The notes under the pieces were generated by a model, which was given only the letters and a program-made list of their open reading frames with translations, did no database searches and was not told where the DNA came from. Shown in pieces: positions 4,554 to 32,771 of a stretch of 33,862 bases of DNA (its first letter is position 1; each line of letters opens with the position of its first letter). Both the position numbers and the translations under genes were made by a program. The stretch spans positions 1 to 33,862 of IMG/VR virus record IMGVR_UViG_3300017963_000216. One strand, 5' to 3'. This DNA comes from a virus. Lineage: Duplodnaviria; Heunggongvirae; Uroviricota; Caudoviricetes.

Positions 4554-4747
4554 ACAAGGAACCCTACGACCCTGAGGTGACCGAGATCATCCTCAGCCAT
4601 TTGGCGGGTGGTAGCTACGACTTCATCCACTACCCGTGGATGAAGCCACTGTACCGCAAGCTGATCAATAAGAATGTGTGCATCAAGTGTGGTGCTAAGA
4701 TCCCACCCGGCAAGGCCGGGAGAAAGTGCAAGTCATGCCGAACCTAG
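4550..4747 (+). CDS. hypothetical protein with C-terminal zinc ribbon
   Basis: CIKC...CKSC. Confidence 0.7.
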   Translation: MNKEPYDPEVTEIILSHLAGGSYDFIHYPWMKPLYRKLINKNVCIKCGAKIPPGKAGRKCKSCRT

Positions 4748-5268
4748 CATCAGCTGTGGCGTACGCCAAGCATGTCCACCGAAACGACCGCCGCAAGTGG
4801 GGCGGGCAGCTTTACATCTACCATCCCATGCGGGTGATGACCGAGGCCATGCTGCGAGGCATGAACGAAGCACACCTAATGGCTGCCGTCTGCCACGACA
4901 TCCTTGAGGACCACCCAGAGCCGACCCCCGAGGCCGCGTACAAGATGCTGAATTGGCACATCGGCAGCATAGCCACCAGCATCGTCGGGATGCTGACCAA
5001 CAGATTCACCAAAGAGGCCTACCCGGACATGAACCGGGCAGACAGGAAGGCCGCTGAGTTCAAGCGTCTGGGCACCTTGCCGGACAGCGTAAAGATCCTC
5101 AAGATGTACGACCGCATCGACAACCTGGAGTCCATAGGGCTCGACATCGGGTTCTCTCGCCTGTACGGTGAGGAGAGCCTCCTCCTGTTCGACCACATCG
5201 GCCATGCAGACCCAGAACTAGATGCCAAAGGCCGACGCCTTGCCATCGAAGCAGCGAGAGCGAGCTGA
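4735..5268 (+). CDS. HD-domain hydrolase, RelA/SpoT hydrolase-like (small alarmone hydrolase-like)
   Basis: AVAYAKHVH..DRRK..GQLYIYHPMRV, AAVCHDILED, KILKMYDRIDNL match the SpoT/Mesh1 HD signature. Start could be 4726. Confidence 0.85.
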   Translation: MPNLASAVAYAKHVHRNDRRKWGGQLYIYHPMRVMTEAMLRGMNEAHLMAAVCHDILEDHPEPTPEAAYKMLNWHIGSIATSIVGMLTNRFTKEAYPDMNRADRKAAEFKRLGTLPDSVKILKMYDRIDNLESIGLDIGFSRLYGEESLLLFDHIGHADPELDAKGRRLAIEAARAS

Positions 5269-5269
5269 T

Positions 5270-6775: not shown

Positions 6776-6776
6776 C

Positions 6777-7174: not shown

Positions 7175-7192
7175 GCAGCATACTTTAGGTAG
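7157..7192 (+). promoter_or_regulatory. sigma70-type promoter (subtype A)
   Basis: TTGACA(7157-7162)-N16-CATACT-TTAGGTAG; same tail as 10861 and 18788. Confidence 0.75.
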
Positions 7193-7202
7193 AGGACCTA
7201 CA

Positions 7203-7469
7203 ATGCTCAGCAAAAACATGACAGCCAAGGCCGCCGCCTTCCAAGTAATGAAGGACGAGTTCGAGCAGCACATCATGGACGAGATAGTGAAGGTAGCCAC
7301 CCAGATGAACTTGGATGAAGCCGCGTTCCTGCATTACGGCAACATGTACACTAGGGGGCATTACGAAGTCCCGAGCAAGAGACTGGACGCGCTGGACGAC
7401 CTGTATTGTGACAACATCCACAGTGGCGGCTTCCAAGGCATCTGGCAGAAAGAGAAAGGCTGGAGCTAA
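7203..7469 (+). CDS. hypothetical protein
   Basis: GAGGA RBS after the promoter. Confidence 0.75.
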   Translation: MLSKNMTAKAAAFQVMKDEFEQHIMDEIVKVATQMNLDEAAFLHYGNMYTRGHYEVPSKRLDALDDLYCDNIHSGGFQGIWQKEKGWS

Positions 7470-7609
7470 TGAAACGCTACATCGTCATCATGCACGGCGG
7501 CGACGTCCGAGAGTGCACCTTGGAGAATGGTGCCTATGTTCATGTCCTACACAGGGCGTGGCAAGTCTTGACAACCGATTCACGAATCAAGAGAGTGAAA
7601 GAACTATGA
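7469..7609 (+). CDS. small hypothetical protein (46 aa, below ORF-track cutoff)
   Basis: MKRYIVIMHGGDVRECTLENGAYVHVLHRAWQVLTTDSRIKRVKEL; TAATG and ATGA overlaps fill the gap exactly. Confidence 0.6.
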   Translation: MKRYIVIMHGGDVRECTLENGAYVHVLHRAWQVLTTDSRIKRVKEL

Positions 7610-8766
7610 TCGACTCGTACAACATCTACGGCGGCGACGGAATCGACCAGGGGTCACGCACCCAGATGGACAACGCTATCGCCCTGCCGAGCGCACGCAA
7701 GGCAGCCCTGATGCCTGACGCGCACCTTGGCTACGGCCTGCCCATCGGCGGCGTGCTCGCCACCGAGGGAACCATACTGCCATATGGTGTCGGCATGGAC
7801 ATCGCCTGCCGCATGCGGATCACGCTGGCAGCTGCGCACCCTCTCATGCTCAACGTCCTGGAGGGCAACTGCCCGCAAGAGAACGCCTACCTGGACAAGG
7901 GGCTCCGTGAAGGCACCCGGTTCGGGATGGGCAACGACTACTCGCCCGGCGAGCGTCAGAGCCACCCGGTGATGGACGACCCAGAGTGGGACACAACACC
8001 GTTCCTCCGCGAGCTGAAAGACAAGGCGTGGAACCAACTCGGCACCAGCGGTGGCGGAAACCACTTCGTCGAGTGGGGCCTCTGCACATACAACACCCGA
8101 GAGTACATCGCTCTCATGTCTCACAGTGGGTCGCGAGGCTGCGGCCATCAGGTCTGCACACACTACACCAAGATCGCCAAGGAACTGAACCCGGCTGGCG
8201 AGTTGTCGTGGCTGGACCTGAACAGCGAGGCCGGGCAGGAATACTGGCACGCGATGAACCTGATGGGCCGCTACGCTGCGGCAAACCACGAGGTCATCCA
8301 TCGCAACGTGTTCCGTATCGCCGGTCTTGGGCGTGGGGCTCACGTAGAGAATCACCACAACTTCGCATGGATGGAAGAGCACGACGGCAAGGACCTGATC
8401 GTACACCGCAAGGGCGCGACCCCGGCAGCCATCGGCGACATGGGAGTGATCCCTGGTTCCATGGCCACCCCGGCGTACATCGTCTCAGGCAAAGGCAACG
8501 CTGATAGTATCTGCTCAGCGTCGCACGGTGCGGGACGGCTGATGAGCCGCAGCGCTGCTAAGAAGGCCTTCAACTGGCCTGAGTGGCAGGATTACCTGGG
8601 CGAGCGCGGCGTGCGATTGTTGCAGGGTGGCCTGGACGAAGTGCCGGGTGCCTACAAGGACATCACCAAGGTAATGGCAGCCCAGAGCGACTTAGTCGAC
8701 ATCGTAGGGGCGTTCATCCCGAAGATTGTTATGATGGCCCCACCCCAGAAACGAGGACGCCGATGA
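7606..8766 (+). CDS. rtcB: RtcB-family RNA ligase
   Basis: MPDAHLGYGLPIGGV, VGMDIAC, QLGTSGGGNHFVE, HSGSRG, NHHNFAW, VHRKGATPA, IPGSM, SASHGAGR, DEVPGAYKDI. Start set at 7606, not 7315. Confidence 0.95.
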   Translation: MIDSYNIYGGDGIDQGSRTQMDNAIALPSARKAALMPDAHLGYGLPIGGVLATEGTILPYGVGMDIACRMRITLAAAHPLMLNVLEGNCPQENAYLDKGLREGTRFGMGNDYSPGERQSHPVMDDPEWDTTPFLRELKDKAWNQLGTSGGGNHFVEWGLCTYNTREYIALMSHSGSRGCGHQVCTHYTKIAKELNPAGELSWLDLNSEAGQEYWHAMNLMGRYAAANHEVIHRNVFRIAGLGRGAHVENHHNFAWMEEHDGKDLIVHRKGATPAAIGDMGVIPGSMATPAYIVSGKGNADSICSASHGAGRLMSRSAAKKAFNWPEWQDYLGERGVRLLQGGLDEVPGAYKDITKVMAAQSDLVDIVGAFIPKIVMMAPPQKRGRR

Positions 8767-8906
8767 GACTACGACCTAGGCAACGACCAGCCGAGACCCT
8801 TCCACAGTTTCGACACCGGATGAAGTCCGAAGGATTCCAATGGTGTATGGATAGACTGGAGTGGCACACAGACTGGTGCACCTCTTACCCGAATTGGATT
8901 TGGTAA
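8763..8906 (+). CDS. small Trp-rich hypothetical protein (47 aa)
   Basis: ATGA and TAATG overlaps. Confidence 0.5.
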   Translation: MRLRPRQRPAETLPQFRHRMKSEGFQWCMDRLEWHTDWCTSYPNWIW

Positions 8907-9172
8907 TGTTCACAGTGTGCTGGTATTGTATGAGAACGGTGTCCGTTGACAAGAACAACCTGCTGGGCTGCCACGTAGACAACGGATGGATTCGAGGCCG
9001 GAAGGCAGTGCGATGCAAAGGCTTCAAGACGGAGGCCCGGTGGGTTGAGAAGCACAAACTAAGTGCCATGGGCCGGAATCGCCAAGGGGTGTGCATGGCC
9101 TGTGGCGAAACAGAAACCAATCGGGAGTGCCCCCAGTGCTGCCGTGAAAAACGATGGGAAAACAACAAATGA
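8906..9172 (+). CDS. Cys-rich zinc-binding hypothetical protein
   Basis: CWYC, CMAC, CPQC motifs. Confidence 0.65.
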   Translation: MFTVCWYCMRTVSVDKNNLLGCHVDNGWIRGRKAVRCKGFKTEARWVEKHKLSAMGRNRQGVCMACGETETNRECPQCCREKRWENNK

Positions 9173-9618
9173 ATCGCAACGCTTTCTTTGACATCATCAA
9201 CGCCCGCTCGGCGGCTTATGCCGAGGCCAACGCCTACGACGAAGCGATCAGGTCCGCCTCCAAGGCGTGCAACGCCGTAATCGACGGCAAGCAACGCGAG
9301 CCGTGCGACTCGCACAGTTACAAAATCGAGGAGATACTTCGGTACGGCCACAAGTTCATCATCAAGTTCACCGATGGCTCGTGGCTGGGCGTCACCGCAG
9401 ACGACTGCGAGTACGACAACGAAGGGCTGCAATACAACGAGCGACTCAGCTACGATGACGCCTACAAGCTGGGCATCCTCACCGAGGAGTTGTACGGAGC
9501 GTGGCGTGAGGCCTGCGAGAACAAGACGAGCCGCGAGAAGAACACCCGAGGCATGACGGCCTTGCAAGAGGCTATGACCTGCCTCGGCACCGAACGCATC
9601 AAGGAACTGGTCAAATGA
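9169..9618 (+). CDS. hypothetical protein
   Basis: ATGA overlaps; strong coding-like codon bias. Confidence 0.75.
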   Translation: MNRNAFFDIINARSAAYAEANAYDEAIRSASKACNAVIDGKQREPCDSHSYKIEEILRYGHKFIIKFTDGSWLGVTADDCEYDNEGLQYNERLSYDDAYKLGILTEELYGAWREACENKTSREKNTRGMTALQEAMTCLGTERIKELVK

Positions 9619-9797
9619 ATCCACTCACAATCCTAGCATCACAGTCGCTTCACGACTGGCAAGCAGAAGCTAAGGCCGCTGGCTATGACGACACCTATGA
9701 GTACGTCGCCAAGCACACCGGGGCAACGCGACACGAAGTGAAGAACCTTTTCTTCGCTCAGTTGTACGGCGGACCTGGAACAATGAGGAAATACTGA
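9615..9797 (+). CDS. 60-aa protein resembling the family A DNA polymerase fingers (motif B/O-helix)
   Basis: TRHEVKNLFFAQLYGG fits R-x3-K-x3-F-x3-YG, preceded by a D(T/I)(Y/H)-like segment DDTY. Confidence 0.55.
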   Translation: MNPLTILASQSLHDWQAEAKAAGYDDTYEYVAKHTGATRHEVKNLFFAQLYGGPGTMRKY

Positions 9798-10384
9798 TGA
9801 ACCACTGGCGCACCATCCGATACACTGACGACGGCTGTTACCTGTACGAGTGCCTCTCCTGCAAAGAGCGGTGGGAAGCTCGGCAGGCTCCCGGCTACTA
9901 CGACCAGTGGGTCGACACAGAGGTGCAAGTGGAGGGTGGCTGGACCACCACGAGCAGCGGCGTGCCTCACCACTACGCCAAGCGCGCTGTGCCCGTGTAC
10001 GTGCCGCACTGGCGGTTCTGCCCTTACTGCGGCACCACGTGGAAAGGCCCCATCCGTTGCGACATCGACAACCCATACATGTATGGCGAGCGGCGTAAGC
10101 TGGCCTACAACTGCGACCGTGGTGGCTACTGCAACCCGGATTACTGGTACTGCATCATGGTGTCCGAGGGGCGGCAACCCTACATCACCTCCAAGGTGGA
10201 CCCGCGAGAGCACAGCATCATCGAGGTGCATGAGTTCGTCAAGCGGAAGAACGCCGAGGCAGAACCCGAGTTGAGGTGGCGTGGCAATACGCCAGAAGAG
10301 GTGAAAACCATATACTCCATCCGCATCATGAAGGACAGTGCGATGGAGCTTCGAGGTTATGTCCGTTCGGAGTACATTCGATGA
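9797..10384 (+). CDS. zinc-ribbon hypothetical protein
   Basis: YECLSC...FCPYCG. Confidence 0.75.
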   Translation: MNHWRTIRYTDDGCYLYECLSCKERWEARQAPGYYDQWVDTEVQVEGGWTTTSSGVPHHYAKRAVPVYVPHWRFCPYCGTTWKGPIRCDIDNPYMYGERRKLAYNCDRGGYCNPDYWYCIMVSEGRQPYITSKVDPREHSIIEVHEFVKRKNAEAEPELRWRGNTPEEVKTIYSIRIMKDSAMELRGYVRSEYIR

Positions 10385-10689
10385 GAGAAGCAATTAAGAA
10401 GTACGTTGCCCTGAAGCTGGGGTTCAGCACGGTCGTCCACATCAGCGGCAGCCTGCACGACGAACTCGAAGAGACCCGCAAGGCTTACCACAAGGCAGAG
10501 GTCACCGTCGGAATGGACGAAGGCGCTCTAGCCAAGTGCATCGAACTCGGCATGGACTGCTACACCACCAACTCGTGGAAGAGCAACCTGCGGGAAGCCA
10601 AAGCCAAGCGCAAGGTGGCGAAACGCAAGTACGAGGAAACCCTGGCTGCCTACCGAGACTTCCAGGACGCGAGAGAGGTGTGTGGATAA
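10381..10689 (+). CDS. helical/coiled-coil hypothetical protein
   Basis: GGAG RBS, ATGA overlap. Confidence 0.7.
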   Translation: MREAIKKYVALKLGFSTVVHISGSLHDELEETRKAYHKAEVTVGMDEGALAKCIELGMDCYTTNSWKSNLREAKAKRKVAKRKYEETLAAYRDFQDAREVCG

Positions 10690-10856
10690 TGTACAGATTT
10701 CTCATCAATCTATTCGGGTTGTCCTTTCGTCGTAGGCAGCCCTGGCGGAATGACATTGCTCATTTTGACGTCAACGCGGTGATGGCCCGTGACAGGGCTC
10801 GGTTTGAGAGGCGGAGGCTCCTGGCTTTGCAGGTCTGCACAAAGAGCGAGAAATAA
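10689..10856 (+). CDS. small basic hypothetical protein
   Basis: TAATG overlap; ends just before the promoter. Confidence 0.5.
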   Translation: MYRFLINLFGLSFRRRQPWRNDIAHFDVNAVMARDRARFERRRLLALQVCTKSEK

Positions 10857-10860
10857 TTAT

Positions 10861-10896
10861 TTGACACGTCCGTTTCTCGGTGTATGCTTTAGGTAG
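10861..10896 (+). promoter_or_regulatory. sigma70-type promoter (subtype A)
   Basis: TTGACA(10861-10866)-N16-TATGCT(10883-10888)-TTAGGTAG, then an A/C-rich leader and AGGAG RBS. Confidence 0.85.
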
Positions 10897-10932
10897 ACGA
10901 AACAACAAACAACTCAACCAGGAGACACAACG

Positions 10933-12312
10933 ATGGCCTTACTTCTTATCCAGAATCGCGGAGAGTGCCCAGAGGAAGCTTTCACTTTAATGGGTGCCAG
11001 CCTCAGTCGCTCGGACGACGGCCTGCTCGGTCAGTTCGGCAGTGGTGCCAAGCTCGCCATCTGCACGCTGCTCCGCATGGGCAAGAGAGTCATCATTTAT
11101 TCGGGCAAGACCCGCATGGAGTTCAAATGTCGGACAATCGAAATCAGCGACGACATCGAGTCGCAGCAGAAGGAGCGCGTCTTCGTCCAGTACGGCGGCA
11201 CCTCCACCCGCAAGGAAGACCTGGGCTGGGTCGTTGACATGGGTGCCATCGACTGGAAATGCAACCTGGACATGGCCATCCGGGAATTTGCGGCCAACGC
11301 CATCGACCACACCGTCAAGCGTGGGGATGACCTGAAGGAAGCCCGCGCCAACCGCGACCTGTGTGTCGAGATCGTTCCGGACGGCCTTCGTAAAGCACAG
11401 AAGGGATTTACAAGGGTGTACATCGAGTCGTGCGAGAAGTGCGAAGAGTATGTGGACGCACTGCCCCGCAAGTTCCTGCAATTCAGCAACCAGCCGCTGA
11501 ACCAGCCGATCATGCCCAAGATCAACCCGCTCAATAAGAAGGTGCAAGTGTACCTCTGCGGAGCGTTCGTCTGCGAGCTGAAGGACAGTGCGGACAGCAT
11601 GTTCGACTACAACTTCCGCAAGGACCAGATCGCCATCGACGAGAGTCGCAACCTGGGCGAGTACGCGGCCCGTGCCGCCATCGCCAAGCTGTACAAGGAT
11701 GCACCCGCCGTGACGCTCAGCAAGGTGTTCCAAGCCCTGCTGGACGGTGTGGCGTGCCTTGAGACAGGGCTCGACACTTACTACATCAAGCCGGATTGGT
11801 CCGGTGCGAGAGACAGTCAGAAGACACGCTGGCAAGACGCCTGGGCTTCCTGCCACGCCGACGACGCTGTCATCTGCTCTGGGCAGAGCAACGTGGTGGA
11901 GAAGTACGCCAAGCAGAAGGGCTATGTCCTGGGCTCGGTGAGCAACTCAAGCTGGGTCGAGTGTGCCAGCCAGTACGGAATCAAGACCATCACCGACGTG
12001 CTGGATGTGGACGAACGAGAAGGCCGCGTCACACAGCCGCCCACCCTCGAAGCGGAAGCGGCGTTCGTCAAGGCGAGCCAGTTCATGGCTGACCGAGACC
12101 TGCTCGACACCCCGTGCACGGTGTGCGGATTCACTGAAGAGAAGAGCGAGACCGAAGCCTACTACCGCGAGTCGGTCGTGTACATCCGAACCGACGTGTT
12201 CGACAACCTGGAGTCCCTGTGCATTGAGCAGCTGGCCAAGCACAACGTCCGAACCAACAGCGCCCGCATGACGTCCGACGTCCTCCTGCTGGCCTGTGTC
12301 AGGAGCATGTAA
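10933..12312 (+). CDS. GHKL (HATPase-like) ATPase domain protein with rearranged motif order
   Basis: G-box LMGASLSRSDDGLLGQFGSGAK at aa 19-40; N-box-like AIREFAANAID at aa 115-125. Confidence 0.7.
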   Translation: MALLLIQNRGECPEEAFTLMGASLSRSDDGLLGQFGSGAKLAICTLLRMGKRVIIYSGKTRMEFKCRTIEISDDIESQQKERVFVQYGGTSTRKEDLGWVVDMGAIDWKCNLDMAIREFAANAIDHTVKRGDDLKEARANRDLCVEIVPDGLRKAQKGFTRVYIESCEKCEEYVDALPRKFLQFSNQPLNQPIMPKINPLNKKVQVYLCGAFVCELKDSADSMFDYNFRKDQIAIDESRNLGEYAARAAIAKLYKDAPAVTLSKVFQALLDGVACLETGLDTYYIKPDWSGARDSQKTRWQDAWASCHADDAVICSGQSNVVEKYAKQKGYVLGSVSNSSWVECASQYGIKTITDVLDVDEREGRVTQPPTLEAEAAFVKASQFMADRDLLDTPCTVCGFTEEKSETEAYYRESVVYIRTDVFDNLESLCIEQLAKHNVRTNSARMTSDVLLLACVRSM

Positions 12313-12566
12313 TGATACTGGGCAGCTACAACAAGCAGCACTGCGGAGCCATCAAAGTCACCTCAGGACTCTTCGTCCTGGGTGACCAAGTGGACATCAA
12401 CGGCGTCACCTACACGGTCATCAGCACCGACGGGATGATCAGCCCTGGGGTGTACGGCCTGTGGTTGGACCGCCCGCTGGAGGCCGACGTCCGAGACCTG
12501 GACAGCATCAAATATGTGGGCAAGTGGCCCGCAAGCAAATACTTCGTCTTCGGAGGCAAGTCATGA
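12312..12566 (+). CDS. small beta-rich hypothetical protein
   Basis: TAATG overlap; GDQVDINGVTYTV...LDRPL. Confidence 0.7.
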   Translation: MILGSYNKQHCGAIKVTSGLFVLGDQVDINGVTYTVISTDGMISPGVYGLWLDRPLEADVRDLDSIKYVGKWPASKYFVFGGKS

Positions 12567-12829
12567 AATACCTACTCGCCTCGTACCAGATCATCGACGC
12601 CGTCATCTATCACCCAGAGTCCTGCAAGCCGGTCTACGTCGAGACCAGCCACGACATACTCGCGCTCATCAACGCGCACATGAAGGACAACTACTGGGAC
12701 GAAGAGATCACGTCCACCCGGATTGATCTCGACAAGCTGACCGTGATCATCAAAACCGAAGACACTGACGGGAAGTTCACCAACACCCGCACCTTTTACC
12801 TGATCCCAATCCAGAGGTACGTCGGATGA
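12563..12829 (+). CDS. hypothetical protein
   Basis: GGAGG RBS; overlaps at both ends. Confidence 0.7.
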   Translation: MKYLLASYQIIDAVIYHPESCKPVYVETSHDILALINAHMKDNYWDEEITSTRIDLDKLTVIIKTEDTDGKFTNTRTFYLIPIQRYVG

Positions 12830-13677
12830 AAACTCACACTTTCTCCATCGTCGTCGGCACCCGTGCCTGCAACTTCAAGTGCCCGTTCTGTGTCAGCAAG
12901 ATGACCTGCCGGTCTGCGAAGAAGCACGACATCAACTGGAACCGGTTCGATATAGCCTGCCGGATCGCAGAGCAAGCACGTGACGGTCTGGTGAACGCCA
13001 TGTTCACAGGCACTGGCGAGCCCACCCTGTTTCCGGACGACATCACCGACATGCTGCACATCATGAACAAGCGGTTCCCGCTGGTGACGTTGCAGACAAA
13101 CGGTGCACTGTTGACACAGATCCAGCTAAACAAGTGGGCAGCCCTAGGGCTCACAGGGGTGTGTCTGTCGGTGGCCGACTACGACCACACCAACAGCAAC
13201 AAGCTCATGGGAATGGAAGGGCTAGACTACAACTTCTGGGCCGCAGTCGACATGATACATGAGGCTGGCCTGATGGTGCGGCTGAACTGCACCATGGTGA
13301 AGGGTGGCGTCGCCAACACGCACGCAGTTGAGAACCTGATCACCGTCTGCAAGGACAACGAGGTCGAGCAACTGACGCTGCGTGAGGTCGACCGACCCGG
13401 CAACCCCGCTGGTGCACCTGAGGTGGCCGACTGGGTGGACGCCCACAAGCCTGACGGCTTCGCCAAGGAACTGTTCAACTACCTGACGTACCGTGGTGGC
13501 AACCGGCTGCCAGACCTGCCGCACGGCGGCGTGGTGTTCGACTACCGAGATCAGAACGTCTGCATCTCCAACTGCCTGACCGAGTCGCGAGACCCGAACG
13601 ACATCCGGCAAATCATCTTCTTCCCCAACGGGGAGATCAGCTACGACTGGAAGTACAAGGGGGCACGAATACTGTGA
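12826..13677 (+). CDS. radical SAM enzyme
   Basis: CNFKCPFC (Cx3Cx2C), FTGTGEPTL (GGE-like motif), LQTNG. Confidence 0.9.
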   Translation: MKTHTFSIVVGTRACNFKCPFCVSKMTCRSAKKHDINWNRFDIACRIAEQARDGLVNAMFTGTGEPTLFPDDITDMLHIMNKRFPLVTLQTNGALLTQIQLNKWAALGLTGVCLSVADYDHTNSNKLMGMEGLDYNFWAAVDMIHEAGLMVRLNCTMVKGGVANTHAVENLITVCKDNEVEQLTLREVDRPGNPAGAPEVADWVDAHKPDGFAKELFNYLTYRGGNRLPDLPHGGVVFDYRDQNVCISNCLTESRDPNDIRQIIFFPNGEISYDWKYKGARIL

Positions 13678-13820
13678 TGAGTGAACGAGCGAATAAGATT
13701 CGCGACATGCGACCCAAGCCTGCCGCGCTCATGGTCTTCCAGTGGGTGAAGACTGGAGTCATCGGGGCTCGCGAGTTCTACGAGTTGGCCGAACTGATTT
13801 ACGAGGACCTCAATGTATAG
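13677..13820 (+). CDS. small hypothetical protein (47 aa)
   Basis: MSERANKIRDMRPKPAALMVFQWVKTGVIGAREFYELAELIYEDLNV; TGATG overlap. Confidence 0.55.
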   Translation: MSERANKIRDMRPKPAALMVFQWVKTGVIGAREFYELAELIYEDLNV

Positions 13821-14277
13821 CTACCCAGCAGCACCTGACGACGGCACCGACCGACAAGTGACAGTGATCCTGACCGACCAGGGTGGTGACATCATCAACG
13901 ACGCCCTAGAGCTGACGTGGTCGCACGCTCTGATCTACCTGGACAACGACTGGATCTACGAGGCCACTTGGCCATGGGTGCGGAAGACGAACCCCTGGGA
14001 CGGCAGGGCTCTCGGCAAGGCCACCAAGGTCGAGCACTTCGAGCTGTTCGTGACAGAGCAGCAGCAACAAGACATGATCAAGTACGCCGAGTCGCAACTC
14101 GGCAAGCTGTACAACTTCTGGGGATACTTCTTCCCGAAGTTCTACAACAAGACGTACGGCGTCTACTGCTCGCAGTATGTCTGCCAAGTGTTACGGGCGG
14201 GTGACATCAACATTCCAATCGGTGCTGGCTACAGCCCCGACAAACTTCTCAAAACATTAAGGGTTTACAACCGATGA
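13813..14277 (+). CDS. permuted papain-like NlpC/P60 enzyme (YiiX/YebB-like)
   Basis: His before Cys: WSHALIY...IYEA...YAESQLGKLYN...YCSQYV. Confidence 0.8.
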   Translation: MYSYPAAPDDGTDRQVTVILTDQGGDIINDALELTWSHALIYLDNDWIYEATWPWVRKTNPWDGRALGKATKVEHFELFVTEQQQQDMIKYAESQLGKLYNFWGYFFPKFYNKTYGVYCSQYVCQVLRAGDINIPIGAGYSPDKLLKTLRVYNR

Positions 14278-14648
14278 AATCTCTCGAAGACCTAATCCAG
14301 CCGGGCAAACAACTCTGCATCCGGAAGCACTCGGCCCCTGGCATGTCCGGCTACTCATGTACCATCCGCGAGATCCCTGAATGTGAGGAGTCGTTTTCGT
14401 GGGGCGAGGCCGGACACAGCGAGAAGCCTTTGTGTGCTGTGAACAACTTCGTGGCTCTGCAAAACGGCATCGGGGTCTTCCGGGAAACAAGCGAGTTCAA
14501 GGAACTCACCTTGACCGGTGATCAAGTCCAGAAAGTGAAAGCGGCACTCAATGGTCTCAAAGTGGACAAGTACGGGGACGTCATCGTCACCTGCTCGCTT
14601 AGTGCGAAGGTGGACGACGCGCTCGCCATCATTGGAGCGCAACGATGA
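14274..14648 (+). CDS. hypothetical protein
   Basis: ATGA overlaps. Confidence 0.7.
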   Translation: MKSLEDLIQPGKQLCIRKHSAPGMSGYSCTIREIPECEESFSWGEAGHSEKPLCAVNNFVALQNGIGVFRETSEFKELTLTGDQVQKVKAALNGLKVDKYGDVIVTCSLSAKVDDALAIIGAQR

Positions 14649-15187
14649 AGTGCAACAAGTACCAGAAACTGGCGTTGAAGTCTGTGGACTATGGCTGCGG
14701 GCGACCCATTGAGTACCCACCCTACGGCCTGTGCGGCGAGATGGCTGAGGTGCTCAGTGAGTTCCACTCATGCTCTCACGGTGACGATGACGCGTTACTG
14801 CTTGAGATCGGCGATTGCCTGTGGTATATCTCTGCCATGTCCGACGACATAGGGCTGAAGCTGAGCTATGTCCTCGACGTGAAAGACCTCAAGGATGTTG
14901 TTCCGTACCCGTGCCCAGCTAGCAACCTCCCCATCTTCTGTGGGACGGTGGCAGAGCAAGTGAAGAAGATGGTGCGCGACGACTGTAAGCGTCTTTCCAC
15001 CGCCAGGATGAACAAGATCGTAGGGGCCTTACGAGGTGCGGCGAGATGTCTGCAAGGGCTCGCCAACGAACGGGAGGTGGTGCTGGATCGCAAGGGCAAC
15101 CTGATAGGTTACAGCCTGAACGAAGCCGCCTACCTGAACCTCGACAAGCTAAAGACCAAACGAGAGAAGAAAGGCAGTGTAGGATGA
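14645..15187 (+). CDS. MazG-like nucleotide pyrophosphohydrolase
   Basis: YQKLA...YGLCGEMAEV...LLLEIGDCLWYI; second half VAEQVKKMVRD...NLDKL. Confidence 0.8.
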   Translation: MKCNKYQKLALKSVDYGCGRPIEYPPYGLCGEMAEVLSEFHSCSHGDDDALLLEIGDCLWYISAMSDDIGLKLSYVLDVKDLKDVVPYPCPASNLPIFCGTVAEQVKKMVRDDCKRLSTARMNKIVGALRGAARCLQGLANEREVVLDRKGNLIGYSLNEAAYLNLDKLKTKREKKGSVG

Positions 15188-16104
15188 GCAGCATCGTTGA
15201 ATCACTGGCCAACAAAGGCCTGATCGACCCGCCAGACTTCGTGAAGTCCAACACCATGTACGAGTGCGTGGTGGGGTCTGTGGCATACGGCTGTGCCACC
15301 AACCTGAGCGACTACGACACCAACGGCTTCTGCATCCCGCCGAAGAACGTTGTGTTCCCTCACCTGAAGGGAGAGATCGAAGGCTTCGGTCGACAGAAGA
15401 AGCGATTCGGTGGCTGGCAGAAGCACCATGTGTTCGACAAGGACGCCTTGGGCGGCAAAGGCCGAGAGTACGACCTGAACATCTACAACATCGTCAACTA
15501 CATGCACCTGTGCATGGAGAACAACCCCAACATGGTGACGACGTTGTTCGTGCCTCGCGAGTGCGTTCTGTCGACCACCTCGGTCGGCGAGATGGTGCGA
15601 GAGGCCCGCCACAAGTTCCTGCACAAGGGCGCGTGGCACCGGTACAAGGGCTACAGCTACGCCCAGCTGCACAAGATGAAGGGGAAGAACCCGGAGCCCG
15701 GCAGCAAGCGGGACAAGCTACGGAAAGAGTTCGGGTTCGACGTGAAGTTCGGCTACCACACCGTCCGGCTTCTGTACGAGGCCGAGATGATCCTGAACGA
15801 GCACGACATCGACCTGCGGCGGCATCGGGAGCACCTGAAGAGCATCCGGCGTGGCGAGCAGACGATGGACGACATCATCGCCTGGGCGAGCAGCAAAGAG
15901 AAGGCCCTTGAGAAGGCCTACGAGGCCAGCTCGCTGCGTCACAGCCCAGACCAGCCCGCCATCAAGACTCTGCTGTTGGACTGCTTAGAGCACCACTACG
16001 GCAGCCTGGAGGCATCTGTGGTCCGGCCCGACGAGCTGACCCTGATCCTGGACAACATTACTGAACAAGTTCGCAAGTACGAAAGGGTACGTGACCGCAA
16101 ATAA
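15184..16104 (+). CDS. DNA polymerase beta-superfamily nucleotidyltransferase (RlaP/YcgL-like)
   Basis: VVGSVAYGCATNLSDYDTNG (GS-x-AYG...SDxD), NPNMVTTLF, KFGYHTVRL. Confidence 0.85.
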   Translation: MSSIVESLANKGLIDPPDFVKSNTMYECVVGSVAYGCATNLSDYDTNGFCIPPKNVVFPHLKGEIEGFGRQKKRFGGWQKHHVFDKDALGGKGREYDLNIYNIVNYMHLCMENNPNMVTTLFVPRECVLSTTSVGEMVREARHKFLHKGAWHRYKGYSYAQLHKMKGKNPEPGSKRDKLRKEFGFDVKFGYHTVRLLYEAEMILNEHDIDLRRHREHLKSIRRGEQTMDDIIAWASSKEKALEKAYEASSLRHSPDQPAIKTLLLDCLEHHYGSLEASVVRPDELTLILDNITEQVRKYERVRDRK

Positions 16105-25696: not shown

Positions 25697-26028
25697 TAGA
25701 ACGGCCCTCTCTCAGTCAGTCGAGTTTCCATGTCGCGGACAGTGCCGATCACTTTGTCTTCTTCGTCGCGGACGAGCCCAAGGTGCACGGTGACCTTCTC
25801 GGAGTCGACAGGCCCGCAGTCCAGCCAGTAGTGCCCGTCCAGCAACCACTCTTCTGTGGCGAAGTTCAAGCGGCTGTGTGTCTCCCACAACTTGCCTTCG
25901 TTGAACTGGGCCATGAAGATGCCATCTTCAAGGGTTCCACTGGTGAGCACGAGGTGTCCCGGACGACCATAGAACTGCGGTTCGTTGCCGACGTAGGTGC
26001 CGCTGTAGTCGTTATAAAAGCTCACCAT
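25696..26028 (-). CDS. hypothetical protein
   Basis: Co-oriented; overlaps the MTase stop. Confidence 0.65.
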   Translation of the reverse strand: MVSFYNDYSGTYVGNEPQFYGRPGHLVLTSGTLEDGIFMAQFNEGKLWETHSRLNFATEEWLLDGHYWLDCGPVDSEKVTVHLGLVRDEEDKVIGTVRDMETRLTERGPF

Positions 26029-26747
26029 ATCTTCTTCACTCCCTGGTCTGCCGCAATTTGTTCACACGTCTCCGTTGACAGTTCAACCATGACTCCATTG
26101 ACGCCACATCGCGGGGCAACTCGACCCATTGTTCCTGATCCGGCAAATAGATCGACCACCGTGTCCCCTGGAGCGCAACTAAGCCGAATGCATCGTTCGT
26201 ATAATCCTTCGTGCAGCTGAGTCGGAGAGAACTTCCGCCGTTGCTTGGAGTTCCCAGTAACTCGTGGAAAGTCGAAGACATCCCCAGGAACACGTCCTCT
26301 GGGGTCAGCTCGCTTATCTCCGTTGAGTTGTCGCCAGGATGGTACTCGGATTGCATCAGGGTATAACTCCGTTCCTCTCTTCATGACTCGGTAGAGCAGC
26401 CGGTGGTTGTTCCCCAGGTCGTTGTGGTTGTGTTGTCCAAAAGAGAAAGTCTGGATGCACGACTTGGCTTCCCAGCCGTCGCTCCACGACAGCATGTTGT
26501 GGATCACGTGGCCAGCCAGGAACGCGTGACGCGAGTTCAGGGACAGCCAGATGACTTCCGCCTTTTGCATCGAGCAGTACAAGATGTTCTGAAGCATCAG
26601 CTCGTACTGATACTCTGGCATCTTGTCCTTGAAGCCGTTGTACTTCAGGCCGATGTTATCCGGTGGATCTGCGAACACCATCCGGAACGGTCGGCATGTC
26701 CTCAGGTACTCTTCGTACGACTTGTTAACCAATTTGATCTTCGCCAT
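26022..26747 (-). CDS. N6-adenine/N4-cytosine DNA methyltransferase (beta-class order)
   Basis: Motif IV-like FADPPD at the N-terminus; H-like Q-L-H-EGLYERCI; VVDLFAGSGT SAM-binding motif at the C-terminus. Confidence 0.85.
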   Translation of the reverse strand: MAKIKLVNKSYEEYLRTCRPFRMVFADPPDNIGLKYNGFKDKMPEYQYELMLQNILYCSMQKAEVIWLSLNSRHAFLAGHVIHNMLSWSDGWEAKSCIQTFSFGQHNHNDLGNNHRLLYRVMKRGTELYPDAIRVPSWRQLNGDKRADPRGRVPGDVFDFPRVTGNSKQRRKFSPTQLHEGLYERCIRLSCAPGDTVVDLFAGSGTMGRVAPRCGVNGVMVELSTETCEQIAADQGVKKIW

Positions 26748-27030
26748 CAGGCAGCACCTTTCTCATCACAATCCACAGTTCAGGAACCCACTCGCCTTCG
26801 ACGAACTCGTCGCCATCGTCTATGAACGTCACCACGCACTGACCGGTGTCAGACTGGTGCAGCTCGGCGTCCGCCGCCACCGCCGTCATAGCGGCCAGCA
26901 TGTCGTCGCCGAACTGATCCTTGGTGACTACATCTTTCACACGCGGGATGGCAGGTCCGTGCACCATGCCTGTGGTGCCCAGGTCGTCCAGGTGCGAGTA
27001 GTCCGCCGATCTCGATCTGTCGTCTGTCAT
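26725..27030 (-). CDS. acidic hypothetical protein
   Basis: GGAG RBS, ATGA overlap. Confidence 0.65.
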   Translation of the reverse strand: MTDDRSRSADYSHLDDLGTTGMVHGPAIPRVKDVVTKDQFGDDMLAAMTAVAADAELHQSDTGQCVVTFIDDGDEFVEGEWVPELWIVMRKVLPDGEDQIG

Positions 27031-27503
27031 AGCATCACTCCAAACACGTAGCCGTCCCACAGCTTGCCATAGTGCCAGAAGTAATCGCTCTCGCACCCTG
27101 CGATCTTGAACTCGAATCGCTCCAGCCAGCCGCCGATATAGTCGGGGTCTTCCTTGTCCTCTATGCGGTAGCTGGGCACAATGATCTTCATGTCGTGCAT
27201 CTTGTCCGCCATGCCCCGCTTCGACGCCTCACTGAGCAGCTTACGGCTCACTCCGATGCCTCGGAAGTTGGGCAGCACTCCCAGTGTCAACCACAAGGTT
27301 TGAGCGTCGTGATCGACGCTACACGACGCTAGGCCGACGTTCACCTTGCCGACCCTGGCGATGTACACAAAGTGATCGTTGTCTTCCATGTTATTCTTGA
27401 CGCATTCCAAGTCAAGCGGGAATTGAAACGCCTTGACTTCCAAGTCGCGAATAGTTCCAACGAATCGCACTCCAATCGCAGCTTCTGTATTTATCAGTGT
27501 CAT
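27027..27503 (-). CDS. GNAT-family acetyltransferase
   Basis: LGVLPNFRGIGVSRKLL acetyl-CoA binding motif A. Confidence 0.85.
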   Translation of the reverse strand: MTLINTEAAIGVRFVGTIRDLEVKAFQFPLDLECVKNNMEDNDHFVYIARVGKVNVGLASCSVDHDAQTLWLTLGVLPNFRGIGVSRKLLSEASKRGMADKMHDMKIIVPSYRIEDKEDPDYIGGWLERFEFKIAGCESDYFWHYGKLWDGYVFGVML

Positions 27504-28552
27504 CCTCTGAATGGCCTTTCATTGCACATAGCCCAGAAATCATCGTTGCCATCGTTCGGTGGCGGGATGTCCATCACCTGACAACGTTTGTCGCTATCCT
27601 CGCGACTCAGCTCGGTAAAGATGTGTCCGCTATGAACCGTCTCCCACATCGAGGTGATGCGGTTCATCAGGCTGTGCTGCCAGAACTCGGACACTCGGCA
27701 GCGGTGTTGCGCCACTCGGATGAGCGGCTTGAAGTCCTGCACCTCGATGACCTCATCCGAATCCTTGTTCTCGACCAGCATCTTGTCCTGGGCGATCTTG
27801 TCAGGGTTCGGCTTGCAGGCCAGTTGGTCGATGCCGACGATGGTGTCTTCATCGCCCACTTCCATGCCCATCAGCCACGAGTAGATCGTGATCTGGTCGG
27901 CCCATTTCTTATCGACGTCTTCCATCCAGTGAGCACCAATCTTGTGCCCCTTGTGATCCATCTCCTCAAACTTCGGGTGAGGCTTGGAGTGCCCGCCGCC
28001 GCGAGTGGCCTTGCGAGTCTTGGTCGGTTCCCAGCAGTCGATGCACGACCGGTAGAACTTCTTCGGTGACTGCGGACTCTTCGAGCAGTAGCCCATGACC
28101 TTCCAGTCGTACACCACCTGGACGTCCAGCTTGTACCAGAGGTCAGGCTTGCCCACCAGAGGCACCCCCTTCACGTCTCCGGTCAGTTTGAACTCGAAGC
28201 GGGGATCTTCCTCGCTTCGCAGCAACTCCTGTAACAGGGCGTCGTAGATGCCCCAGGTGCGATAGCAGTCGAAGCAATACTTGCCTGCGCCCCACGCCCA
28301 CTCTCGGTTGGCCTCATCCACCTGCTCGTTGAACAGCCGCTTCAGCTCGTACACGCCATCGCCATCGTTGCCAAAGATGTGATGGTGCAGCGCGCACTTC
28401 ACGAAAGCATCGAACGCCGAGCCCACGCTGGCCGGTCGGCTCTGGGGGTCGTACGGAGCCCGGTAGTCGGACAGGTACTTGCGGTAGAAGTCGTCCTTGT
28501 CGCGCTCCCACTGGAACAGCGACGTAGGGGATATGGCTTTCAGCTCTCTCAT
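27500..28552 (-). CDS. PD-(D/E)xK nuclease (RecB/Cas4-like exonuclease)
   Basis: ISPTSL..W...FY..YL, VGSAFD, RFE...LVGKPDL...VYDWKV. Start set at 28552. Confidence 0.85.
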   Translation of the reverse strand: MRELKAISPTSLFQWERDKDDFYRKYLSDYRAPYDPQSRPASVGSAFDAFVKCALHHHIFGNDGDGVYELKRLFNEQVDEANREWAWGAGKYCFDCYRTWGIYDALLQELLRSEEDPRFEFKLTGDVKGVPLVGKPDLWYKLDVQVVYDWKVMGYCSKSPQSPKKFYRSCIDCWEPTKTRKATRGGGHSKPHPKFEEMDHKGHKIGAHWMEDVDKKWADQITIYSWLMGMEVGDEDTIVGIDQLACKPNPDKIAQDKMLVENKDSDEVIEVQDFKPLIRVAQHRCRVSEFWQHSLMNRITSMWETVHSGHIFTELSREDSDKRCQVMDIPPPNDGNDDFWAMCNERPFRG

Positions 28553-28553
28553 G

Positions 28554-29288
28554 TTATACTCCAGAAAGGTAGTTGCGGAACTCGCGTGCGGCCTCGCGAG
28601 ACTTGAAGTCTCGTTGTCGCTCGGTGCTCGGCACGGGTGGTGACGCCAGCGGGTTGAGGCCGAGTGCGTGCAGCGTCTTGTTCCACGGGCTGGTAGAGCC
28701 GCAAGGCAGCGACCGGAAGTCCTCGTAGGCGAACGCGTCGTCGGTGTGGACGCCCAGCACACGTCGATAGAATTGGTCTTGGTCGATGATGGTGGCCAGC
28801 CGCATGGCGATGTTCTCGAACGACAGGTCAGGCTCTCCCTTGGCCTCGTGTGTGCTCTTCCACTGATTGGTAGAGACGGCCTTGGCCAGCGACACAGCCT
28901 GCTGGACCTTGTCCTCGCGGTAGATCCACACCATGTGGTCGAAGCCCATGTCACCGACAGCGAACTCATACTCTTTGGAGATGTGGAGCAGCTGTCCGAT
29001 GTGGACGTGTAGGCTGAAGCAGCCTTTGGGAGCTGTCTTCCGCGTGACGAAGTCCAGGTACTCTGGCAGGCTGAAGGTGTCATAGTTCATCACCTCTTGC
29101 CACGCGGCAAAGTGCTTCTCGTTGAACCACTCGTCTACGATACCCACCTGCCCGTCGTTCGTCAGCACGTCGCAGAACAGGGTGGAGCCAGACCGAGGCG
29201 TCGACACCACCAAGAGGCCAGTCGTCGGTTCTGGGTTGTCTGGCTGGGTCGCCAATGTCTCAAACAGTTCGATGTGAGGGCTGCTCAT
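28554..29288 (-). CDS. Stf0-like PAPS-dependent sulfotransferase
   Basis: VSTPRSGSTLFCDVL (5'-PSB loop), EWFN, IYREDKVQQAVSLAKAVSTNQW (3'-PB helix). Confidence 0.85.
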   Translation of the reverse strand: MSSPHIELFETLATQPDNPEPTTGLLVVSTPRSGSTLFCDVLTNDGQVGIVDEWFNEKHFAAWQEVMNYDTFSLPEYLDFVTRKTAPKGCFSLHVHIGQLLHISKEYEFAVGDMGFDHMVWIYREDKVQQAVSLAKAVSTNQWKSTHEAKGEPDLSFENIAMRLATIIDQDQFYRRVLGVHTDDAFAYEDFRSLPCGSTSPWNKTLHALGLNPLASPPVPSTERQRDFKSREAAREFRNYLSGV

Positions 29289-30341: not shown

Positions 30342-30591
30342 AGACTGGCTTTCTCTTGTCTAAGTGGCAGTTGACAGACCAAGGTGCTATGTCGCCCTCG
30401 TACACATCGAGCGGCATCATGTCGTGCAGGGTGCGAGCACGTGCCAGCGTAGGCTGCACCAACACCATCTCCTGATCCCCGCTTCTCAGGATGACGTTGA
30501 ACTGGCCGTCTTCTCGGGGCTCTATTCGCCGCTCGTAGGCGACAGGCTCATACCTGTCGCAAGTAGCGTGCAATCTTCGGAATTCCATCAT
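30325..30591 (-). CDS. hypothetical protein
   Basis: Gap-filling ORF; start overlaps the ligase and is uncertain. Confidence 0.5.
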   Translation of the reverse strand: MMEFRRLHATCDRYEPVAYERRIEPREDGQFNVILRSGDQEMVLVQPTLARARTLHDMMPLDVYEGDIAPWSVNCHLDKRKPVYEKLI

Positions 30592-31642
30592 CGCTCAGCT
30601 CCATGTATCTGAATTCAACTGTGTCACCGATCTTGAAATGCTTGCCCTGGGTGCCGGAAGGCATGTCCTTACCAGGGGCTAGCGCAGCGATGTTCGTGTC
30701 GAACGGGGTGGCGAACCTGCGCTCCTCATCCGTGAACCCACTCAGCTCCAGCCGCTTGCCGTTGTAGTCCAGTATCAGAGCACCGATCAAACCGAGCAGC
30801 TTGGAACCCTTGTTGGTCTTGCGGCCACTCACGAAGCCTGTGACGGTTCCCTGGTCGTCCGCGAACTTCTTCACCTTCAGCAGGTCCTTGACTCGCTTGG
30901 GCAGCCAGATCGAGTCGGGCTGTCTCAGCATGAGGCCTTCGCCTCCAACGTCCAGCACGTTACTCATCATCGTGTCGATCTTGGCCTCGGCCTTGGATCG
31001 GTCACCCGGCAGGAGTACGTGCTGGTGGAGGTAGACGACGTCGCTCTCGGCGGGGAGGCTGGCCTGCAACAGTTGCAGCTCCTGCTCGAACGTCTGACTT
31101 GGGATATGGACGAACGATTCGAGGAAGCCGTTGTCGGCCCGGCGTTGCACGAACTTCATAATGGTCATCTGGTCGATGTCACACACGAAGCCGGGGTTCT
31201 TAATCTCGCCTTGGGCAAACACCTGCGTCGGACACGGGGCCCCGAACACCGCCAGCTTCACATCTCGCCACCGGTCGTCGCTGGCGTCGTGCTTGCCTGT
31301 GATAGACCGCAGCGTCTGGAAGTTACCACGACCAGCGAACAGCTCGCCGTCCAGGAACATCGCAGGCAGTTGGTTGAGCCACCAGTCAGGTGCGCACACT
31401 GGGTTGCCTAGGCGAGTCCACAGACCGGTCGAGAACTCTTTGATCTTCTTCTTCCGCTCGCCGGGTTCCTTCGGGTTCATGATACCAGCCCAGGGAACAT
31501 CCTCTGTACGCATGCCACGGGTGATGCCGCCGTCCCACAGGACTCGTGTACCATCCAGCTTCTCGGAGACGTACATGCCCGATGGGTCGTGCTTGCCTTC
31601 CTCGAAGACCTTTGCCAGTTGTAGGAATTCTCGTCTTGCCAT
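30548..31642 (-). CDS. ATP-dependent DNA ligase
   Basis: SEKLDG (motif I), LDGELF (III), EGLMLR (IV), LLKVK (V), C-terminal OB fold ...IGDTVEFRYMELSDDGIPK. Start set at 31642. Confidence 0.92.
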   Translation of the reverse strand: MARREFLQLAKVFEEGKHDPSGMYVSEKLDGTRVLWDGGITRGMRTEDVPWAGIMNPKEPGERKKKIKEFSTGLWTRLGNPVCAPDWWLNQLPAMFLDGELFAGRGNFQTLRSITGKHDASDDRWRDVKLAVFGAPCPTQVFAQGEIKNPGFVCDIDQMTIMKFVQRRADNGFLESFVHIPSQTFEQELQLLQASLPAESDVVYLHQHVLLPGDRSKAEAKIDTMMSNVLDVGGEGLMLRQPDSIWLPKRVKDLLKVKKFADDQGTVTGFVSGRKTNKGSKLLGLIGALILDYNGKRLELSGFTDEERRFATPFDTNIAALAPGKDMPSGTQGKHFKIGDTVEFRYMELSDDGIPKIARYLRQV

Positions 31643-31803
31643 CAGTTCACCTTGTACAGCCACATCTGGGCTTCTTCGAGTTTGGTTAGTGCGAGGGACA
31701 ACTCCCGCGAGGGTGAGTTGGTCTTCACACGTGTCAAGCAACGCAACGCTTTGATGATGTCCATGCGGGCGTCAGACAGGTCCCGGCTATCGTACTCATT
31801 CAT
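31642..31803 (-). CDS. 53-aa Acb2/Tad1-like helical hairpin protein (not in ORF track)
   Basis: MNEYDSRDLSDARMDIIKALRCLTRVKTNSPSRELSLALTKLEEAQMWLYKVN; overlaps both neighbours. Confidence 0.7.
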   Translation of the reverse strand: MNEYDSRDLSDARMDIIKALRCLTRVKTNSPSRELSLALTKLEEAQMWLYKVN

Positions 31804-32200
31804 CATCGGCGGTCTCCGGTTTCGGGTAAACCATCGCTTCCACGATGTATTGGTGTCGGTCGGGGTTGGGTCGGCGGGCGATGTAGATGTTGACGGGGAT
31901 CTTGCCCTGCCAGCATCGGAAGCCGATCACTTTGTCTTTCTCTCCTGGGAGAGGCATCGCCTTGGTGCACACCCGCTCCAGCTTGTTGATGCAGGGCGCG
32001 ATGTAGTTCTCGATGACAGGTTGCAGGTACAGCATGAACAGCTCTTGGGCAGTCATGCCAGCCACCTCGTCGCTCGGCAACGTGAAGGTGTAGAACACTC
32101 GATGGTCGCCGTTCTCCACCTTGCCCGGCACAACCTCAGCGGTGAGGTAGCGGTCGAGGCATTCGGACAACGAAGGGATTTCACTGGGGTTCATGGCCAT
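31796..32200 (-). CDS. hypothetical protein
   Basis: AAGGA RBS before ATG 32200. Confidence 0.7.
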   Translation of the reverse strand: MAMNPSEIPSLSECLDRYLTAEVVPGKVENGDHRVFYTFTLPSDEVAGMTAQELFMLYLQPVIENYIAPCINKLERVCTKAMPLPGEKDKVIGFRCWQGKIPVNIYIARRPNPDRHQYIVEAMVYPKPETADDE

Positions 32201-32210
32201 GTGTGGTTCC

Positions 32211-32771
32211 TTAGAGTAAGATCGGAATGATTCGGGTAACGGCGTCGAACACATCGAAGGCGTCGAACACATCGAAGGTCGGTTCCGAGGCTGGCTCAGG
32301 AATGCCTTCCTTAATAGTCGGAGGGTTAGTCAAAGCCTCTAGAGCCTTCTCCAGTACGCCCACCTTGAACTGCAACCGGAACATGGAGTCATAGGCGTCG
32401 TTCAGCTCCTCCTGCTGCGTCTCCAGTCGGGCGACCGCTTCTGAGAGCGAGGCCTTCAGACGCGAGTTCTCTTCGCTGAGAGCTGAGACGTATTCGCCGG
32501 TCTTCTTCTCTCGCTCGCACAGGAGTCCATTCTCCAGGGCAAGTGACTTGACCGCGCCAAGCAGGTCTCGGGAGTAGGCCTGTGACTTGGCCACCTGTCG
32601 CACAAGATCTTCCTGGTACTGCACTTGCAGCACGCGGTTGCGCCATTGGTTGTAACCAATCTCTGATCGACCAGCCACCAACAGAGTGGTTGCGAAGATC
32701 CACCCCAGAGCCAGGAGGAGAGAGGCCTTCACAGTGAACTTCAGTATCGCCAGCAAATTCTTCATCGTCAC
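32211..32771 (-). CDS. N-terminally anchored coiled-coil membrane protein
   Basis: TM ASLLLALGWIFATTLLVAG, then a long heptad region. Confidence 0.7.
   Translation of the reverse strand: MTMKNLLAILKFTVKASLLLALGWIFATTLLVAGRSEIGYNQWRNRVLQVQYQEDLVRQVAKSQAYSRDLLGAVKSLALENGLLCEREKKTGEYVSALSEENSRLKASLSEAVARLETQQEELNDAYDSMFRLQFKVGVLEKALEALTNPPTIKEGIPEPASEPTFDVFDAFDVFDAVTRIIPILL
32241..32276. repeat. 18-bp in-frame tandem duplication
   Basis: GGCGTCGAACACATCGAA x2, encoding FDVFDA twice. Confidence 0.9.

Follow-up and report, generated by a model that had tools for sequence, protein, structure and literature searches.

We found that a 54-amino-acid open reading frame (ORF) lying directly upstream of the DNA ligase gene in a Caudoviricetes virus is a genuine gene that is tightly coupled to both of its neighbors, and that it is an insertion, an accessory cassette placed exactly at the ligase start codon. 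By its sequence, the product (here called the hairpin protein) belongs to the Acb2/Tad1 family, PF24729, and our best reading is that it represents an Acb2-type sponge in minimal form, whose ligands are most likely CBASS signals of the cA3 type. The most useful points to come out of the analysis are the clean insertion of the cassette and the bare-core architecture of the protein that it encodes. All coordinates below are those of the window, i.e., the whole 33,862-nt stretch of DNA that was analyzed.

An accessory gene at the ligase start codon

The hairpin ORF is real, as judged from the sequence and from the ORF calls, and its position and those of the surrounding features are given in Table 1. 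Two ATG codons stand at its beginning, the first at 31806-31804 and the second at 31803-31801; the last codon ends at 31645 and is followed by a TGA stop codon at 31644-31642. The preliminary description had recognized this ORF as a 53-aa reading frame at 31642-31803, which corresponds to the second ATG. A GGAG element, read directly from the sequence, lies 7 nt 5′ of the first ATG, and we therefore prefer the 54-aa form over the 53-aa form. The encoded protein ends in the motif SPSRELSLALTKLEEAQMWL, followed by YKVN. The claimed coupling to both neighbors was confirmed. On one side, the TGA of the hairpin ORF overlaps the ligase ATG (31642-31640) as ATGA, the last two bases of the TGA being common to both; on the other, the stop codon of the upstream 134-aa gene (31796-31798) lies 11 nt inside the hairpin ORF.

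Table 1. Positions, strands and supporting evidence for features of the ligase region and of other genes, in window coordinates
Feature	Position	Strand	Evidence
Hairpin CDS (54 aa, P0001)	31645..31806	-	ORF; PF24729 at 37.1 bits; AF2 model with two helices; public gene call; GC3 of 0.76
GGAG Shine-Dalgarno-like element	31814..31817	-	Sequence read directly
Segment lacking in seven related phages, 161 nt	31640..31800	-	DNA alignment; tblastn and motif scans
R34-T41 codons (RELSLALT), predicted cyclic-trinucleotide pocket segment	31684..31707	-	Alignments
E44-K52 codons (EEAQMWLYK), matching CmTad1 Q98, E99, M102, W103 and K106	31651..31677	-	Alignment
ATP-dependent DNA ligase, 364 aa, KxDG motif near N-terminus	30548..31642	-	PF14743, PF01068, phrog_114; homologs named DNA ligase
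Conserved upstream 134-aa gene	31796..32200	-	ORF and public gene calls; homologs in seven relatives
184/186-aa gene	32211..32771	-	Homologs in seven relatives
N6/N4 DNA methylase	26022..26747	-	
GNAT acetyltransferase	27027..27503	-	
HD phosphohydrolase	4726..5268	+	
RtcB RNA ligase	7315..8766	+	
Radical-SAM protein	12826..13677	+	
Nucleotidyltransferase	15046..16104	+	

Several observations bear on whether the ORF is translated into a functional protein. Its GC3 falls within the range of its neighbors (0.76 to 0.79), in a segment whose overall GC content is just 54%, and antisense ORFs across the region gave no family match in the profile search. The ORF had been called hidden, and it was indeed absent from that reader's own gene track, but public gene calls list the identical 54-aa protein on six metagenome contigs with a precomputed PF24729 label. 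It is thus very improbable that we are dealing with a chance ORF or with a leader whose sole role is to couple ligase translation. The ORF is admittedly very short, and related phages translate their ligases without it; against this stand the ORF's own Shine-Dalgarno element and neighbor-like GC3, a Pfam match with an E value of 3.6e-9, the recurrence of the protein on six contigs, and the existence of same-size relatives that are 44 to 55% identical to it.

To place the gene in its genomic setting, we relied on the adjacent ligase. Ligase homologs are numerous on phage contigs of ~90 to 105 kb, and a ligase-based locus search in IMG/VR returned nothing. Seven related phages (L087 to L093; 6 kb each), whose ligases are 66 to 69% identical to the one studied here, were taken from the protein collection via the ligase. 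All seven share the gene order 184-aa gene, 134-aa gene, ligase, and 88-aa gene, and in seven of seven the 134-aa homolog (36 to 74% identity) directly overlaps the ligase start. Neither tblastn nor motif scans found the hairpin gene or its motif in the 6 kb around the ligase of these relatives, which may carry it elsewhere in their genomes. Alignment of the DNA revealed a clean 161-nt indel that starts right after the relatives' ligase ATG and ends with the new ligase ATG. Because the gene is lacking at this locus in seven syntenic relatives and its absence coincides with a clean indel, we regard it as an accessory cassette. The cassette was set exactly onto the start codon of the ligase within a conserved early/replication operon. 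It took over the start and the ribosome-binding site that the ligase had used, is itself translated by coupling, and passes translation on to the ligase through the ATGA overlap. As such, the insertion offers a tidy example of how counter-defense genes may be slotted into conserved operons with translation left undisturbed.

A functional tie between the hairpin protein and the ligase was considered and rejected, given that other bare hairpins adjoin unrelated genes and that the ligases of the relatives come without a hairpin gene. Elsewhere, stand-alone hairpins sit in runs of small early genes, and one of them adjoins a DnaB-type helicase gene. The 134-aa and 184/186-aa genes upstream of the ligase, which have homologs in all seven related phages, matched nothing in Pfam, PHROG, NCBIfam, or the Atlas.

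At 26022-29083 (minus strand), the leftward gene block to which the hairpin gene belongs also encodes the methylase and the acetyltransferase listed in Table 1, together with a sulfotransferase-like protein (PF09037, from public gene calls) that is conserved in the relatives; DNA- or host-modification functions are possible for these three. The rightward block (4726-16104, plus strand) holds the HD phosphohydrolase, RtcB, radical-SAM, and nucleotidyltransferase genes. The RtcB, HD phosphohydrolase, nucleotidyltransferase, N6/N4 methylase, and GNAT genes of the window are likely counter-defense or host-takeover genes.

Family membership and predicted fold

The hairpin protein scored 37.1 bits against PF24729 (Acb2/Tad1 hairpin), above the curated gathering cut-off of 27 bits, and its gene provided the sole match to this model in the 101.6-kb virus genome (33.3 bits in the genome-wide scan). 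The NCBIfam models gave no match to the protein, and Tad2 (PF11195) is absent from the genome. The PF24729 match covers only positions 28 to 53 of the 58-position model, that is, its second half. The second helix carries the complete motif R-E-x-S-[IL]-x-x-T-K-[LI]-[EQ]-E-A-x-M-W, and helix 1 is, by sequence, divergent.

Close relatives of the protein are rare. HMMER, run exhaustively against 1.8 billion representatives, yielded just eight matches, with three to four close relatives only; the nearest (P0004 to P0006) are three stand-alone proteins of 56 to 69 aa with the identities given above, and natural two- and three-repeat versions were also among the eight. A near-DNA search of the phage collection gave no match, and a word-based protein search with the hairpin protein alone as the query recovered only itself. 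When the hairpin protein and its nearest relatives were combined into a profile and compared with solved structures, the profile matched CmTad1 (E = 1e-8), CbTad1 (E = 3.5e-5), Acb2 homolog 43 (E = 0.0027), and T4 Vs.4 (E = 0.013). PaMx33 Acb2 was not matched by this profile; profile alignment links it to the hairpin protein solely via an intermediate Acb2-like subgroup. By subgroup, the scores were 42.5 bits for the Acb2-like, 38.7 for the FTYH-motif, 37.9 for the Tad1-like, and 31.7 for an abundant 81-aa subgroup. Of just 8,000 candidates that were scored with the profile of the hairpin protein and its relatives, more than 3,000 were PF24729 proteins. Together with the Pfam score, these matches bear out the family assignment made in the preliminary description, and the CbTad1 motif cited there, SSRENACALTHVEEALMWM, agrees with the profile alignment output.

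Some of the relatives are built from tandem hairpins. One (P0003; L086:4001-4603) has three hairpin repeats in 200 aa, and its gene adjoins FolD-like and MazG genes; a second (P0007), of 211 aa, contains two repeats, and a third (P0008) has a duplicated motif. It is conceivable that such proteins are pseudo-oligomers of the sponge fold made from a single chain. An AF2 model of P0003 alone, as a candidate single-chain trimer, was uninformative (pLDDT of 45.6). A 566-aa entry in the representative library (P0002) comprises nine head-to-tail copies of a 61-aa unit that resembles residues 2 to 41 of the hairpin protein before shifting frame; we left it out as an apparent assembly or rolling-circle artifact of a related gene rather than a real protein.

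AF2, run without an alignment, confidently predicted a two-helix hairpin (helices at residues 4 to 30 and 34 to 53; pLDDT of 89). The protein begins three residues before helix 1, and the model contains no strand and hence no β-sheet domain, in agreement with the earlier statement that the longer N-terminal part of Tad1 is missing. The stand-alone hairpin is, in effect, just the core common to Acb2 and Tad1, and its architecture is best described, from sequence and model, as that of a bare Acb2-type protomer rather than a truncated Tad1.

The preliminary description had suggested Foldseek searches and oligomer modeling as checks. In the Foldseek search of the PDB, the C-terminal helices of CmTad1 and CbTad1 appeared from the second row on (30 to 35% identity over 40 residues; RMSD of 0.8), but with E values of ~1, and no row from either the PDB or BFVD had an E value of 0.001 or less. 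Rows of an equal level included designed bundles and small-terminase helices. Weak E values are to be expected, since fold statistics have little power for a hairpin of just two helices; the Foldseek matches are therefore used only as being consistent with the sequence evidence.

Prediction of a three-copy complex gave a score of 0.43, versus 0.00 for the best control. In the calibration, 20 of the 30 proteins solved as one-chain pairs attained this mark, compared with 1 of the 23 solved single-chain proteins; these counts hold only roughly, since the three-copy prediction used a custom alignment and the calibration used two copies. Contact agreement across the runs was at least 93%, and partner pLDDT was at least 77. 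The protein is thus predicted to self-associate. The confident contacts were two-fold symmetric (46-46, 43-43, 16-16, and 20-20), however, so that the predicted interface in the three-copy model is dimer-like rather than a three-fold ring. The pass may also reflect likeness, because the family has solved hexamers. The predicted two-fold interface does not involve R34, T41, E44, or M48, which leaves these residues free for another interface or for a ligand; this is compatible with a three-fold interface or pocket but no demonstration of one.

Pocket residues and candidate ligands

To assess which residues might contact a ligand, we compared the hairpin protein with characterized family members. 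In CmTad1, every phosphate of the cyclic trinucleotide is held between two neighboring chains, one contributing R88 and the other T95, and the bases are lined by C87, A91, and M92 (bioRxiv 10.1101/2023.11.15.567273). In PaMx33 Acb2, R67 and T74 form the trinucleotide pocket, and the residues that line the bases are A70 and I71 (PMC10312549). In CbTad1, the R90A and T97A mutations markedly reduced cA3 binding (bioRxiv 10.1101/2023.11.15.567273), and across the three proteins mutation of this Arg/Thr pair (CmTad1 R88/T95, CbTad1 R90/T97, and PaMx33 R67/T74) abolishes or sharply reduces it (PMC10312549; bioRxiv 10.1101/2023.11.15.567273). Alignments place R34 and T41 of the hairpin protein at the equivalent positions in all three. 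The base-lining residues of CmTad1 correspond to S33, S37, and L38, and S37 and L38 also occupy the lining positions A70 and I71 of PaMx33 Acb2.

The residues that assemble the hexamer are likewise largely retained. The CmTad1 hexamer needs contacts of R88 and K96 to T95, Q98, and E99, plus M102, W103, and K106, and a fivefold mutant (Q98A/E99A/M102A/W103A/K106A) forms dimers and does not bind cyclic trinucleotides (CTN) (bioRxiv 10.1101/2023.11.15.567273). In the alignment, the interface residues K96, Q98, E99, M102, W103, and K106 fall on K42, E44, E45, M48, W49, and K52 of the hairpin protein; with R88 and T95 included, seven of the eight are identical, the exception being Q98, which is replaced by E44. 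These assignments use a chain-to-paper numbering offset of 10 for CmTad1, which holds for all eleven named residues.

Conservation within the family points in the same direction but has to be read with care. Among 198 family members, R34 is conserved in 99%, E35 in 98%, and S37 in 90%, and none of these positions was part of the pattern used to collect the sample; the other motif positions were selected for, and their conservation in this sample is therefore circular. Moreover, the Arg and Thr also build the hexamer, so their conservation is no proof of ligand binding. T4 Acb2, in which an Asp replaces the Arg, did not gain cA3 binding upon a D61R substitution (PMC10312549), because the geometry of the pocket and helix matters. 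For cA3 binding, the Arg and the Thr are known to be required, but the pair does not by itself confer it.

We infer hexamer formation, ligand binding, and anti-CBASS activity of the hairpin protein from these homologies. The protein is probably a homo-oligomeric sponge for nucleotide immune signals, one that would self-assemble into the family hexamer, a trimer of dimers, and sequester host cyclic-oligonucleotide signals. The best-supported site, judging from the aligned residues, is a central trinucleotide pocket. There, on the three-fold axis, the phosphates of a cyclic trinucleotide would be gripped by R34 from one chain together with T41 from the adjacent chain, and its bases would be lined by S33, S37, and L38. 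The CBASS signals cA3 and cAAG are the candidate ligands for this pocket, and we tentatively favor one of them as the true ligand, at somewhat short of even odds. The preliminary description had proposed a sponge for CBASS or Thoeris-type signals. The homology of the trinucleotide and hexamer-interface residues is in keeping with the former, and the Tad1-type gcADPR pocket is absent: in the profile alignment, the gcADPR/dinucleotide pocket residues F82, N92, R109, and R113 of CbTad1 fall at approximately R26, L36, V53, and past the C-terminus. For the new specificity also suggested there, we found no supporting evidence. In the literature searched, there was no binding or defense assay for any family protein this short, and the smallest solved member found was Acb2 homolog 43, a 76-residue chain whose extra terminal strands build a 3′cADPR pocket (PMC12393519).

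The protein may also possess an additional, peripheral pocket like that of Acb2, composed of an N-terminal segment with Y5, a basic residue of helix 1, and K52. This raises an alternative, which we consider unlikely, in which the protein is a sponge whose main ligand occupies peripheral (vertex) pockets, be it a cyclic dinucleotide as in PaMx33 and T4 Acb2, 3′cADPR as in Acb2 homolog 43, or some other signal, and the central trinucleotide pocket is secondary or unused. Specificity does vary within the Acb2 family, with Thoeris being inhibited by 10 tested homologs, and K52 aligns with K55 (chain K56) of Acb2 homolog 43. In addition, the Acb2-like IMG/VR subgroup has the columns of PaMx33 Y11 and K26 in the alignment, and one possible register of helix 1 equates K19 of the hairpin protein with K19 of Acb2 homolog 43 and K26 of PaMx33. 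That register is ambiguous, however, as K19 (hmmsearch), R14 (hhalign), or R22 (shared RDLS) may stand in the Lys column. Y5 is near the Acb2 Tyr column but off by one to two residues, and the hairpin protein has neither the C-terminal tail that holds P90 in PaMx33 nor the β-strands of Acb2 homolog 43, elements which complete such pockets. A Tyr does recur at position 4 to 6 of the otherwise variable N-terminus in the bare hairpins P0004, L071, L044, and L019, and this residue may substitute for Tyr11 of Acb2, which stacks on a base.

It is quite unlikely, on the other hand, that the protein is an oligomerizing PF24729 hairpin that does not act as a sponge, for example, a small protein-binding inhibitor or adaptor whose target is a protein of the host or the phage. 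Hairpins of two helices serve generally as interaction modules, as the designed bundles and small-terminase helices among the Foldseek rows illustrate; the PF24729 domain also occurs in fusions with other domains and repeated in tandem, and the conserved residues have a structural role as well. Nevertheless, all characterized family members are sponges, the spacing of the ligand-contacting Arg and Thr is exactly retained, and the behavior of the gene as an accessory cassette fits a counter-defense function.

If the sponge reading with a central trinucleotide pocket holds and cyclic trinucleotides are bound, this protein, with its 54 residues, would rank at or near the lower size limit of the immune-signal sponges known so far, and the two-helix core common to Acb2 and Tad1 would suffice to assemble and trap a signal, a result useful for understanding how the family diversified and for the design of minimal sensors and sponges. 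Otherwise, the protein, unusually short but ordinary and seemingly unannotated, adds one more sequence to the thousands of which the family already consists. A broader and more doubtful proposition is that hairpin-only proteins of ~55 aa are autonomous sponges with central trinucleotide pockets only, representing either a minimal Acb2/Tad1 core that was later elaborated by peripheral pockets or a form with a ligand new to the family.

Comparison with known sponges

Among solved structures, CmTad1 (8KBB-8KBD) and CbTad1 (7UAV, 8KBE-8KBH) are the best matches to the hairpin protein in sequence and fold. The Arg and Thr of the trinucleotide pocket are identical, as are four of the five hexamer-interface residues that were mutated together. 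Tad1 is nonetheless a protein of ~120 to 130 aa with an N-terminal β-sheet domain, which the 54-aa hairpin protein does not have, and no residue of the gcADPR/dinucleotide pocket is present. With these Tad1-specific features absent, we rejected the idea of a truncated Tad1, and anti-Thoeris (gcADPR) activity by the Tad1 mechanism is unsupported.

The Acb2 proteins of PaMx33 (p26; PDB 8H2J and 8IXZ) and JBD67 resemble the hairpin protein in being small, all-helical, stand-alone products of accessory early phage genes. PaMx33 Acb2 has the same Arg-Thr spacing of 7, the residues at +3 and +4 being small or hydrophobic, and it shares with the hairpin protein an RDLS stretch in the first helix. At ~94 aa, PaMx33 Acb2 is longer; the hairpin protein has ~30 fewer residues before the Arg and no C-terminal tail, and the Tyr11/Lys26 dinucleotide pocket maps to no confident counterpart in it. 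T4 Vs.4 (Acb2; PDB 7UQ2) resembles the hairpin protein in the second-helix motif TKL.EA.MW and differs in its longer N-terminus, in the Asp at the Arg position, and in not binding cA3.

Acb2 homolog 43 (PDB 9PTQ; Hadary et al. 2025, PMC12393519) comes close to a minimal protomer, with two long antiparallel helices that assemble into a hexamer, and it retains the Arg, the Thr, and the Lys after the aromatic pair. It differs in having N- and C-terminal β-strands that form the 3′cADPR pocket, and in carrying FF where the hairpin protein has MW. Counterparts of the same overall design are the 50- to 70-aa "Acb2/Tad1 hairpin domain-containing proteins" of UniProt/BFVD and the ESM Atlas, which have the same size, a single domain, and a phage origin; UniProt/BFVD labels proteins of 50 to 66 aa in this way, and the ESM Atlas clusters are of 57 to 62 aa. 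The hairpin protein would join these bare-core members of a family for which 9,141 Acb2 and 2,953 Tad1 homologs have been counted (Hadary et al., PMC12393519).
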